Source of the DNA: a virus
Lineage: Duplodnaviria; Heunggongvirae; Uroviricota; Caudoviricetes
Strand: one strand, 5' to 3'
DNA: 4,791 bases
IMG/VR virus record: IMGVR_UViG_2531839029_000017
The notes under the pieces were generated by a model. It did not search any database. It was not told the origin of the DNA and was given only the letters and a program-made list of their open reading frames with translations. Below are positions 1-4,671 of this stretch, in pieces. The position numbers were made by a program, and so were the translations under genes. Numbering within the stretch: position 1 is the first letter of the stretch; each line of letters begins with the position of its first letter.

Positions 1-72
1 ATCGGAAACGATGATCTGGCAGCCTGAGTTCACAGATAAAACACTCTCCAGGAAACCCGGGGCGGTTCAGAA

Positions 73-531
73 TTGCTTTTTAATTGTAGCAAAATTCAAC
101 CAGTTGAAAACAAGAAAGATGCTAATGAAACTTTAGAGTTAAAAATTATTGAGCTTCAGATGAAAATTAATAATTTAATCGTTGCATTGTCTGTCGCGCC
201 TGAAGTTACCGCTATAGCAGAGAAAATAAGACTATTAGATAAGGAATTACGAAGAGCTTTGGTATCATTGAAAACTTTGAAGAGTAAAGGTGTAAATTCA
301 TTCAGTGATTTTTATGCTATTGACTTAACCAGTAAAAATGGACGAGAGTTATGCCGTACACTTGCCTATAAAATATTCGAAAAAATCATAATTAATACGG
401 ATAATAAAACCTGTGATATCTATTTTATGAATGGCATTGTTTTTAAACACTATCCTTTAATGAAAGTAATATCCGCCCAGCAGGCGATAAGTGCTCTCAA
501 ATATATGGTTGATGGTGAGGTTTATTTTTGA
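73..531 (+). CDS. Hypothetical protein, unknown function, in AT-rich cargo segment; N-terminal half is coiled-coil-like. Start uncertain: TTG at 73 is the first start after an in-frame stop at 37-39, and the first in-frame ATG is at 160 (123-aa product).
   Basis: Six-frame ORF of 152 aa. Hand counts give about 22-25% G+C on lines 121-180 and 361-420 versus about 50% on line 1681-1740. No convincing Shine-Dalgarno before either start. No similarity that I recognise. Confidence 0.35.
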   Translation: MLFNCSKIQPVENKKDANETLELKIIELQMKINNLIVALSVAPEVTAIAEKIRLLDKELRRALVSLKTLKSKGVNSFSDFYAIDLTSKNGRELCRTLAYKIFEKIIINTDNKTCDIYFMNGIVFKHYPLMKVISAQQAISALKYMVDGEVYF

Positions 532-650
532 GTAATAATCACTTTTTCAACCGTGCTATGGTATGAAAGTAAAGTAACTACTATGATATTAACTATCGAG
601 CAAGAATATCCCCAGGCACTCAACAGGGCGCAGGTCAACGTGAATCGGTC

Positions 651-842
651 ATGACACGACACCGATTTTGCGGAATCAATGTTGCTTATGAATACAACAT
701 CCCGCTTAGTACATGTTCAACACATCAGCAAATTTTGAACTGGGTGTGGCACTTAACTGAAAAAACATGGATGACACAAAATGTTACTCGTCGCTTCATT
801 GAAGTAGCTTGTGGATATCACAAGCTAGACTATCGCCAATGA
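651..842 (+). CDS. Small hypothetical ORF (63 aa), possibly coupled to an upstream 22-aa ORF (583-654) through an ATGA overlap; may be non-coding or a gene remnant
   Basis: ORF track. ATG at 651 overlaps the TGA (652-654) of a short ORF starting at ATG 583. No recognisable motif. Confidence 0.2.
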   Translation: MTRHRFCGINVAYEYNIPLSTCSTHQQILNWVWHLTEKTWMTQNVTRRFIEVACGYHKLDYRQ

Positions 843-884
843 TATTCAATTTTTGATTTTTTAGTATCAACCTTCCATAATAAT

Positions 885-942
885 GTCACCGGAGCTTGAA
901 CAACTCCGGTGACTTCTGCGCATTTAAGGGGACTTAAATGCG
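885..942. terminator. Two adjacent perfect inverted repeats: 10-bp stem gtcaccggag/ctccggtgac with 9-nt loop (885-913) and 10-bp stem cgcatttaag/cttaaatgcg with 4-nt loop (919-942). Candidate terminator(s) or protein-binding palindromes at the cargo/nin-operon boundary.
   Basis: Read directly from the sequence. Intergenic position between the AT-rich segment and ybcN. No strong U-tract follows, so intrinsic-terminator function is uncertain. Confidence 0.35.
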
Positions 943-1032
943 ACCACAATCTGAACTCCTTACCTTGTCACAGATGCAGAAATGCACCTGCGATGTCTTG
1001 CATCCAGCGTTTGATCTCTGCGGAGGTGAAGC

Positions 1033-1488
1033 GTGAACCTCCCACAAGATGGCATCAAATTACATCGCGGTAACTTCACCGCTGTCGGTCAGCAGATCCA
1101 GACTTATCTGGAAGACGGCAAATGCTTTCGCATGGTGCTTAAACCGTGGCGCGAGAGACGCAGTCTTTCCCAGAATGCACTCAGCCACATGTGGTACAGC
1201 GAAATCAGTGAATACCTCATCAGCAGGGGGAAATCGTTCGCTACTTCAGCATGGGTAAAAGATGCTCTCAAACACACATACCTCGGTTATGAAACCAAGG
1301 ACCTGGTTGATGTCGTAACCGGCGAAATCACTACTATCCAGTCGTTACGCCATACCTCCGATCTTGGTACCGGAGAGATGTATGTCTTCCTGTGTAAGGT
1401 TGAAGCCTGGGCGATGAATATTGGCTGCCACCTGACTATTCCACAGAGCTGCGAGTTCCAGCTGCTGCGTGACAAGCAGGAGGCGTAA
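1033..1488 (+). CDS. ybcN: YbcN-family protein (DLP12-type nin-region protein, described as a DNA base-flipping protein)
   Basis: 151-aa ORF starting [15 protein letters not shown], near-identical to my recollection of E. coli K-12 DLP12 YbcN. GTG start at 1033 preceded by GGAGGTG (1022-1028). Lies immediately upstream of ninE, as in DLP12. Confidence 0.8.
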
Positions 1489-2437: not shown

Positions 2438-3123
2438 ATACCCAATATTTACAGTATGTCCGCGAGCAACTCATTGTGGCTACCGCTGATTTGAGCGGAG
2501 CAACGAAAGGACAGCTTGAAGCCTGGCTGGAGCATGCACAATTTGATACTGGTACATACAAACGAAAGAAGCCGCGCATTCTGGATGAGGTAACTGGCAG
2601 GATGATTACGCTGGATAATCCGCCGATTTCCGGTAAGCAGTCGTACGCAAAAGGTTCATCCATTGCACTGGTCAGCCAGGTTGAGTTCTCAACCTCGTCA
2701 TGGCGCCGCGCGGTTCTGTCTCTCGAAGAACATCAGAAAGCGTGGTTGCTGTGGAGTTACAGCGAAAGTGTTCGCTGGGAACATCAGGTCACCATAACGC
2801 AGTGGGCATGGAGCGAGTTTAAGACTCTGTTGGGTACCAGGAAAATTGCAGGTAAGACACTGGAACGTTTGAAGAAGTTGATCTGGCTGGCGGCACAGGA
2901 TGTGAAGAACGAGCTGGCAGGGCGTAAGACCTATGAATACCAGGAGCTGGCATCACTGGTGGGAGTGACATCAAAAAACTGGTCTGAGACATTTACTGAA
3001 CGCTGGGTTGCAATGAAACACATTTTTCTACAGCTTGATAGCCAAGCTTTATTGCTTTTAACGAAAACACGTTCAAAACAAAAGACCACATTTTCACAGC
3101 AAGATATTGCAAAACTGGATTAA
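2434..3123 (+). CDS. Putative late-gene antitermination protein (Q-like), non-lambda family, 229 aa, no cysteines
   Basis: Occupies the Q slot: last gene of the nin operon, just upstream of a non-coding region with promoter and terminator hairpins and then the lysis genes. AAGGAG at 2421-2426 sits 7 nt before the ATG. Not similar to lambda Q as I recall it; family assignment is inferred from position. Confidence 0.5.
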   Translation: MNTQYLQYVREQLIVATADLSGATKGQLEAWLEHAQFDTGTYKRKKPRILDEVTGRMITLDNPPISGKQSYAKGSSIALVSQVEFSTSSWRRAVLSLEEHQKAWLLWSYSESVRWEHQVTITQWAWSEFKTLLGTRKIAGKTLERLKKLIWLAAQDVKNELAGRKTYEYQELASLVGVTSKNWSETFTERWVAMKHIFLQLDSQALLLLTKTRSKQKTTFSQQDIAKLD

Positions 3124-3135
3124 AAATCATATATT
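3107..3135 (+). promoter_or_regulatory. Candidate sigma70 late promoter (PR'-like): -35 TTGCAA (3107-3112), 17-bp spacer, -10 TATATT (3130-3135). An alternative is -35 TTGCCA (3154-3159) with -10 AGTAAT (3177-3182).
   Basis: Hexamer matches read by eye. By analogy with lambda, PR' and qut lie just downstream of Q. Not verified. Confidence 0.25.
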
Positions 3136-3191
3136 TTATGTAAATCTGATATTTTGCCAATGTTGTACGCACTGGCAGTAATCCAAATTCA

Positions 3192-3226
3192 AGCCCGAGG
3201 TTTAAAGCCTTGGGCTTTTCTGTTTC
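3192..3226 (+). terminator. Hairpin with 9-bp stem agcccgagg/ccttgggct (one G-U pair) and 7-nt loop, followed by TTTTCTGTTTC; candidate intrinsic terminator or 5' structure of the late leader RNA
   Basis: Read directly from the sequence. Lies in the Q-to-holin intergenic region. Confidence 0.4.
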
Positions 3227-3304
3227 TGAACGGTGAGTAGCCTTCCAACCTACCCCAGCCAGGGGGTCTTCAGCTGTTGAGTTGATATTGCTTAGCCCTC
3301 TGTT

Positions 3305-3330
3305 GCCAGCTACATGCTGGCTTTTTTATT
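3305..3330 (+). terminator. Intrinsic terminator candidate (tR'-like): 6-bp GC-rich stem gccagc/gctggc, 5-nt loop, then TTTTTTATT
   Basis: Perfect stem followed by a T-run. It is roughly 150-200 nt downstream of the candidate promoters, comparable to the approximately 194-nt lambda 6S transcript ended at tR'. Confidence 0.5.
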
Positions 3331-3432
3331 CCAGGCTTGTGGGGAGCATCAACTCCGTGCTTTGTCGTTAAATTACCCCGTGAGCCTGATTTCTGACATT
3401 TAACGTCCCGGCCTTTTGTCGGCGGCGAAACA

Positions 3433-4213: not shown

Positions 4214-4671
4214 GCAGAATAACCGCGATTATCTCCGCTCTGCTCATCTGCATCATCGTCTGCCTGTCATGGGCTGTTAATCATTACCGTGATAACGCCA
4301 TTACCTACAAAGCCCAGCGCGACAAAAATGCCAGAGAACTGAAGCTGGCGAACGTGGCAATTACTGACATGCAGATGCGTCAGCGTGATGTTGCTGCGCT
4401 CGATGCAAAATACACGAAGGAGTTAGCTGATGCGAAAGCTGAAAATGATGCTCTGCATGATGATGTTGCCGCTGGTCGTCGTCGGTTGCACATCAAAGCA
4501 GTCTGTCAGTCAGTGCGTGAAGCCACCACCGCCTCCGGCGTGGATAATGCAGCCTCCCCCCGACTGGCAGACACCGCTGAACGGGATTATTTCACCCTCA
4601 GAGAGAGGCTGATCACTATGCAAAAACAACTGGAAGGAACCCAGAAGTATATTAATGAGCAGTGCAGATAG
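4210..4671 (+). CDS. Rz: Rz inner-membrane spanin (i-spanin), 153 aa
   Basis: Near-identical to recalled lambda Rz ([47 protein letters not shown]...YINEQCR). N-terminal TM segment. ATG overlaps the R stop (ATGA). Confidence 0.95.
4430..4612 (+). CDS. Rz1: Rz1 outer-membrane lipoprotein spanin (o-spanin), 60 aa, embedded in the +1 frame of Rz
   Basis: Translation [24 protein letters not shown]...[29 protein letters not shown] matches recalled lambda Rz1. Lipobox VVGC and proline-rich region. AAGGAG at 4417-4422 sits 7 nt before the ATG. Confidence 0.9.

Follow-up and report, generated by a model that had tools for sequence, protein, structure and literature searches.

The window, by which is meant the whole 4,791-base stretch of DNA that was analysed, is identical over its whole length to part of the E. 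coli O157:H7 F7386 genome (NZ_CP038360.1; locus L001, 6001–10791), where it belongs to a DLP12-like cryptic prophage adjoining icd. A megablast search with bases 1–1100 matched the locus in 307 of 5,426 complete E. coli genomes, and an IS3-like element IS1203 family transposase is annotated in the best full-length matches. The left part of the prophage in F7386 consists of the integrase and excisionase genes, a truncated O, P, ren, emrE and a small ORF. There follow a 5' piece of ybcK (a pseudogene), an IS1203 transposase and a 3' piece of ybcK (likewise a pseudogene), then a 32-codon ORF, ybcN, ninE, ybcO, rusA, ylcG and Q, and finally, at the right end, the genes for holin, lysozyme and Rz, and bor. 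The same prophage adjoins icd in strain CDC#03-98 (L002), but with an uninterrupted ybcK of 1527 nt. The gene order is also that of the K-12 prophage DLP12, which shares the neighbours of ybcK (ren, emrE and the small ORF on one side, ylcH, ybcN, ninE, ybcO, rusA and ylcG on the other) but lies at a different chromosomal site from the O157 prophage beside icd. No second gene of the YbcK recombinase lineage was seen in the annotation of the F7386 locus, and Rfam and tRNA scans of the whole window gave no matches.

The window opens within an insertion sequence. Bases 1–69 (+ strand) are the right end of IS1203 (IS629, IS3 family), as annotated by PGAP, and the last codons and the stop of the transposase frame occupy bases 1–27 (+ strand). 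The complete copy is 1310 bp long (L001 4760–6069), starting with TGAACCGCCCCGG and ending with CCGGGGCGGTTCA at window base 69. The outermost 13 bases of its terminal inverted repeats agree at 13 of 13 positions, further in the repeats are imperfect, and the PGAP annotation is of an IS3-like IS1203 family transposase in two frames with a programmed frameshift. Directly to the right, bases 70–73 (GAAT) form the right copy of a 4-bp target-site duplication, which becomes apparent when the flanks are compared with the intact gene: the left flank ends in ...AATGAAT and the right flank opens with GAATTGC, against AATGAATTGC in the intact gene. With the element and its duplication, the interrupted locus gains 1314 bp (1310 + 4) in length over the intact one. 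Compared base by base with intact ybcK, the left part of the interrupted gene matches over 1071 nt and the right part over 462 nt, ybcK resuming at window base 70, where codon 356 begins (nt 1066).

A length of ~1.3 kb, inverted repeats, a frameshifted two-ORF transposase and a short target duplication are the marks of an IS3-family insertion, and all are present here. The IS1203/IS629 elements of O157:H7 have the same size, inverted repeats and transposase and make target duplications of 3–4 bp, and there is nothing unusual about this copy except its rare site. A query spanning the junction (window 1–150) was found in only 6 of the 5,426 complete E. coli genomes; the IS end itself is present in 4592 of the 5426. 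Since the insertion is confined to so few genomes, it is recent and lineage-restricted. (An identical 1310-bp IS1203 lies elsewhere in ybcK in Z1813 [L011, NZ_CP062725.1, 1260–2569] and Z1814, where it follows ybcK nt 182 and is flanked by a 3-bp duplication, AGG. This is a second, independent strike by the same element, and ybcK has been inactivated at least twice in O157:H7.)

What lies to the right of the insertion is the remainder of ybcK. Window bases 70–531 (+ strand) comprise codons 356–508 and the stop codon, and are identical at 462 of 462 nt to nt 1066–1527 of the intact ybcK of CDC#03-98, in frame and with the same stop. The same portion is 100% identical to the intact gene in ~300 other O157 genomes. 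The first-pass annotation, which was made from the sequence alone, had singled out a 152-aa ORF here as an unrecognised and possibly undescribed accessory gene. This ORF runs, exactly as claimed, from a TTG at 73 to a stop at 529–531 (123 aa from the first ATG, at 160), and it corresponds to YbcK residues 357–508, with the TTG at 73 being Leu357. PGAP and RefSeq label window 67–531 as a recombinase family protein, incomplete and missing the N-terminus. Judged by this identity and by the PGAP label, bases 70–531 are almost certainly the orphaned 3' third of the 508-codon ybcK, cut by IS1203, and thus a pseudogene fragment. As such the fragment is ordinary and already annotated in RefSeq, and there is nothing undescribed in the segment: the supposed accessory gene is the known ybcK, cut by an IS. 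The annotation had itself added that the ORF might be the remnant of a larger gene, which is correct, and the alignment that it had named as refuting its main proposal, one that would make the ORF the C-terminal fragment of a larger recombinase gene, is the one found here over every base.

The K-12 gene (b0544 in DLP12, annotated as 'putative recombinase YbcK') is the same gene. Window 70–570 aligns with it at 96% DNA identity, and at the protein level K-12 YbcK and intact O157 YbcK differ at 3 of 508 residues. K-12, however, keeps the whole of ybcK, whereas the window keeps only codons 356–508, to the right of IS1203. The two prophages differ again immediately downstream, where K-12 has ybcL and ybcM after ybcK; both are absent from the window, which has 280 bp of decayed small-gene DNA instead.

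The first part of this downstream interval, 532–597 (+ strand), is untranslated sequence that is conserved among ybcK-carrying phages and prophages. The phages Perceval, 4A7, Turner and others, as well as a prophage in assembly GCA_037022965.1 (L006), are homologous to the window as far as base 597, while homology to K-12 stops at 570 and restarts at 851. In L006, ybcK and ybcN are separated by two genes, of 90 and 105 codons, and a comparison with it accounts for the whole difference in spacing between the two genes. In blastn alignments of the window against L006 the offset shifts by 231 and then by 663, with three aligned blocks that are each ~99% identical. The first shift is a 231-bp indel at 597/598, with a 3-nt microhomology (ATC); the 231 bp are present in L006 and absent in the window, and base 597 is a module boundary in other phages too. 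The second shift is, relative to L006, a 663-bp deletion at 674/675, with a 2-nt overlap, and has cost the window the 90-codon gene as well as 150 nt at the 5' end of the 105-codon gene. Together (231 + 663) they give the 894-bp difference in ybcK-to-ybcN spacing, and between the two junctions they leave a 77-bp island at 598–674 (+ strand).

A 63-codon chimeric ORF is found at 651–842 (+ strand). Its codons 9–63 (675–839) come from the small-protein gene and its codons 1–8 are unrelated: in alignment A1, it is homologous to a family of 88–105-aa proteins from residue I9 on only. A full-length copy of the gene is present at L006 5001–5318. In PHROGs, the ORF matches phrog_12459 (87 aa) at profile positions 35–86 of 87, so that its residues 9–63 represent the C-terminal two-thirds of the family protein, including the invariant WVWHLTEKTW, whereas the N-terminal ~35 residues are missing, with the 8 unrelated codons standing in their place by way of the 663-bp deletion. 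No RefSeq feature lies over 651–842 in the ~30 O157 genomes listed, of 301 carrying the segment. This ORF is likely a truncated, 5'-cut remnant. (A Pfam match to DDE_1, with an E-value of 0.012 and below the cut-off, was rejected as due to chance, given the family alignment and the existence of full-length relatives without transposase features.)

The phrog_12459 family has nothing above threshold in Pfam. Proteins with the WVWHLTEKTW motif range from 75 to 105 aa (window 675–842; L006 5001–5318; L007 5001–5273) and occur in enterobacterial DLP12-like prophages as well as in marine (TARA) contigs, where an integrase and a DUF5906 primase-like gene precede them. The 88-aa family is an uncharacterised accessory gene of the same slot. 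PHROGs also holds two families that correspond to the pieces in the window: phrog_2371 (161 aa, 'unknown function') matches the ybcK tail with an E-value of 4e-101, and the whole length of the truncated 63-aa ORF is covered by phrog_2559 (63 aa), whose full-length counterpart is phrog_12459. Both phrog_2371 and phrog_2559 look as if they had been built from pseudogene pieces. The existence of phrog_2371 therefore means that the ybcK tail gets called as a gene, and is not evidence of function.

Judging from what the related prophages and phages carry at this position, the stretch from ybcK to the nin leader is a swap site. In all those compared, namely K-12 DLP12, the phages Perceval and 82, HK639 and L006, its right edge corresponds to window base 851. 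Between ybcK and that edge lie ybcL–ybcM in K-12 (L003 5471–7282), an alpha/beta-hydrolase gene on the reverse strand in phage Perceval (L004 4529–6119), two small genes in L006 (4180–5150), and in O157 only scars (window 598–850). The first-pass annotation had proposed an accessory-gene slot upstream of the nin operon, and the segment does sit in a variable cargo slot between the replication genes and ren on one side and the nin genes on the other; the end coordinate of 850 that it gave is nearly exact. ybcK and emrE themselves make up AT-rich cargo between ren and the nin genes, both in DLP12-type prophages and in several viable lambdoid phages.

To the right of the slot, the conserved leader of the nin operon (851–1032, + strand) is homologous to K-12 DLP12 (from 7283), phage 82 (X92588, from base 48), HK639 and phi80. 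A site scan identified a promoter-like site, TTGATT-17-CATAAT, at 853–881 (+ strand), after which comes a perfect inverted repeat with a 12-bp stem (885–913, + strand). The stretch 853–913 aligns with the putative -35 and -10 elements and the 'possible regulator-binding site' before orf33 of phage 82 (X92588), and the repeat also has a terminator-like hairpin score on the minus strand. The 32-codon ORF at 938–1036 (+ strand; L001 6938–7036, a hypothetical protein in PGAP) is ylcH/orf33-like, corresponding to ylcH of K-12 and orf33 of phage 82; no PHROGs family matches it, and its end overlaps by 4 bases the start of ybcN, the ninB homologue (1033–1488, + strand).

Some features further along the window may be mentioned here. 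The homology with K-12 goes no further than 2438, where Q starts, and the Q module thus differs from the quuD module of K-12. The last ~120 bases of Q and the spacer beyond it (3000–3180) fall to 27–38% G+C. Between Q and the holin gene (3107–3360) there are a promoter-like site at 3107–3135 and terminator-like hairpins at 3191–3217, 3305–3321 and 3338–3359, an arrangement that fits a late promoter whose short leader transcript would be the target of Q. Within Rz, in the +1 frame, a 60-codon ORF at 4430–4612 with a lipoprotein-like start and a proline-rich body is a predicted Rz1-type embedded gene, which is unannotated in the F7386 RefSeq record.

Why does the ybcK segment stand out from its surroundings? 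Bases 73–540 have a G+C content of 31.0% (145 of 468; z = -8.1 against 49.6% for the window). The segment is thus AT-rich, as had been claimed, but the 22–25% G+C originally given for it applies to the extreme lines only, single 60-base lines ranging from 22% to 42%. Bases 541–850 are intermediate, at 40–43%. The low G+C of the segment reflects the fact that ybcK as a whole is AT-rich (35.6%, with 35.9% in the 5' region outside the window). Also outside the window, emrE has 41.7% G+C and O-P-ren 50.1%. The abrupt change that had been noted at about base 72 is indeed sharp and falls at 69/70, because that is where the IS/ybcK junction lies; it marks the end of an IS and not the edge of the cargo. 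Contrary to the first description, the segment is not bordered by phage genes on both sides, since the left flank is the last 69 bases of IS1203, an element of 54% G+C. Nor does the cargo start at about base 72: AT-rich emrE, a ylcJ-like ORF and the 5' part of ybcK continue beyond the IS, outside the window.

In intact YbcK, Pfam recognises a Resolvase domain at 4–161, a Recombinase domain at 191–284 (PF07508) and a Zn_ribbon_recom domain at 302–357 (PF13408). The IS cut falls at the exact end of the zinc-ribbon model, so that all three domains precede the IS and are not in the window. The 152-aa ORF has no match in Pfam. It lacks the catalytic Resolvase domain with the nucleophilic serine, and it lacks the Recombinase and zinc-ribbon domains, all of which belong to a functional large serine recombinase. 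In large serine recombinases, the zinc ribbon is followed by a coiled-coil arm, for which a helical hairpin is expected, and this part of the protein is present. The fragment matches phrog_95 (a PHROG integrase) at positions 450–585 of 651 (E-value 1e-15). Its AlphaFold model, built on a shallow 9-sequence alignment and with a mean pLDDT of 75.5, has helices at 12–41 and 45–74 with an Ala-Pro-Glu (A-P-E) tip between them (pLDDT ~75–83 in the hairpin), and then a small alpha/beta unit at 88–151 (helix/three-strand/helix). Nothing of the recombinase beyond its antiparallel coiled-coil arm and a short alpha/beta tail at the C-terminus is left in the fragment, in agreement with the coiled-coil-like N-terminal half and globular C-terminal part that had been described from the sequence. 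A Foldseek search of the PDB with this model gave only non-significant, generic helical-hairpin matches, among which 4kis_C, a known LSR–DNA complex, was third (E-value 0.73), and speaks neither for nor against the C-terminal alpha/beta unit. The hairpin is thus assigned from where it lies in YbcK, from the match to phrog_95 and from the model, and not from a fold match. (A single-sequence AlphaFold model of P0011, a 256-aa partial protein, had a pLDDT of 33.8 and was not usable.)

A profile of YbcK and its relatives matches SPbeta SprA/YokA (PDB 9dxh, 9dxd) over the first three domains, with an E-value of 4.5e-9, while a phmmer search of PDB sequences with full-length YbcK gave no match at E <= 0.01. 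Intact YbcK shares with large serine recombinases such as SPbeta SprA/YokA (9dxh) and the Listeria integrase (4kis) the succession of Resolvase, Recombinase and zinc ribbon, followed by a hairpin, whereas the fragment in the window is without every catalytic and DNA-binding domain. An exhaustive HMMER scan of 1.84 billion representative proteins found no more than 12 relatives of the fragment. Three of these, P0021 (509 aa), P0028 (465 aa) and P0029 (502 aa), are full-length proteins that align over most of the fragment; in each, the region in question is the C-terminus and the same three Pfam domains lie upstream. P0030 (512 aa, no Pfam domain) matches the fragment weakly and in short stretches. 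Short relatives of 95–185 aa (P0024, P0027, P0023 and P0026) were also found in the representative search, and are presumably contig-edge or pseudogene pieces. When the fragment was used in a word-indexed protein search, the only matches were partial, near-identical pieces from E. coli, and full-length YbcK was not among them; several of these partial pieces resemble base-converted reads. The answer on free-standing homologues therefore comes from the representative scan.

The papers searched give YbcK neither an activity nor attachment sites nor a biological role and, apart from the two K-12 studies cited below, mention the gene incidentally. Across no fewer than 12 sequenced records of lambdoid phages the intact protein is kept almost unchanged, and a tyrosine integrase is also present in these where checked. 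YbcK-carrying phages encode a tyrosine integrase and excisionase as well, as at the F7386 and CDC#03-98 loci.

Could the fragment still function as a gene? On the + strand, no sigma-70-like promoter site is predicted upstream of base 377, and a clear Shine-Dalgarno sequence is lacking ahead of both the TTG at 73 and the ATG at 160; the poor start signals had been correctly observed. Since it has neither a promoter, a ribosome-binding site nor its native start, the fragment is presumably not expressed as a functional protein and would be a decaying pseudogene. Transcription out of the IS or from further upstream would be compatible with the sequence, and there is an in-frame ATG at 160.

The 152-aa or 123-aa ORF was at first thought to be an independent, horizontally acquired accessory gene, such as a moron or a gene for exclusion, defence or anti-defence. 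It is not difficult to see why: the slot is genuinely variable, with different genes in K-12, phage Perceval and L006, the DNA is AT-rich, and a 161-aa family of 'unknown function', phrog_2371, matches the ORF. However, the supposed accessory gene is base for base the 3' end of ybcK, with an IS end and a target duplication directly before it, and three full-length relatives carry the region as the C-terminus of a serine recombinase. A free-standing moron gene would have its own promoter, ribosome-binding site, start and free-standing homologues. The 152-aa ORF has no promoter-like site ahead of it and no clear ribosome-binding site, and its full-length relatives that align over most of it are recombinases of 465–509 aa; it has no Pfam match, and PGAP treats it as a piece of a pseudogene. 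No PADLOC family matched the 152-aa ORF, the 63-aa ORF or the full-length 105-aa relative at E <= 0.1. An independent accessory gene is thus hardly credible. The coiled-coil arms of large serine recombinases mediate synapsis and directionality control, and a fragment translated from the ATG at 160 or by read-out from the IS might, through its arm, act as a dominant-negative or a modulator of related serine recombinases. The predicted helical hairpin is complete, the tail is folded, the model confidence is reasonable, and the ATG is in frame. On the other hand, the fragment is without expression signals, no other gene of the YbcK lineage is seen at the same locus, and the insertion is recent, unconserved and limited to the 6 genomes, while a different IS1203 insertion destroys ybcK in other strains, which fits simple gene loss; such a role is extremely unlikely. 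It is very unlikely that either the translated fragment interferes with serine recombinases or YbcK has a job of its own, for example in moving an emrE-ybcK cassette or in a programmed rearrangement. A job for YbcK is more plausibly of interest than interference by the fragment, and it lies outside the finding proper.

A further possibility concerns the DNA and could hold together with the pseudogene reading. The AT-rich ybcK DNA may be a platform for nucleoid-associated silencers and for Rho-dependent termination, keeping the nin and late region quiet. In K-12, Hfq binds ybcK DNA in vivo in a polyphosphate-dependent manner, and this DNA has served as the model AT-rich fragment (PMC10954037); a Rho/NusG-dependent terminator lies upstream of ybcK, which is de-repressed in Rho and NusG mutants (PMC4150792). 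The 31% G+C of the fragment is in keeping with such a role. However, this support comes from K-12 ybcK, and not from the O157 allele or the 3' fragment alone; the K-12 terminator is upstream of ybcK and outside the window, and the silencing of AT-rich foreign DNA is generic and not specific to this segment. A generic silencing role for the AT-rich DNA is plausible, if on balance unlikely.

The pseudogene reading, then, is preferred. IS1203/IS629 (1310 bp) transposed into codon 356/357 of ybcK in a small O157:H7 lineage, duplicating GAAT. Left on the far side of the IS were the catalytic domain with its serine, the DNA-binding recombinase domain and the zinc ribbon, and the ORF downstream of it opens at an internal TTG (Leu357). 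In the interval 532–850, relative to L006, the 231-bp indel and the 663-bp deletion would have removed the 90-codon gene and the 5' third of the 88–105-codon gene, and this downstream decay would have left behind the fortuitous 63-codon ORF at 651–842. The window happens to open 69 bases before the right end of the IS. Because it starts inside the IS end, the junction showed up as a sudden change of composition, and what follows it looked like an ORF of 152 codons.

The result removes a candidate for an undescribed accessory gene and in that respect matters little. It does illustrate that a window starting just inside an IS end can mimic the boundary of a horizontally acquired island. It also bears on the use of protein family collections: phrog_2371 and phrog_2559 appear to match gene fragments, and a label of 'unknown function' is to be read with care. 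As for ybcK itself, the gene has been struck independently at least two times by IS1203 in O157:H7, which suggests that it is dispensable in the lysogen.
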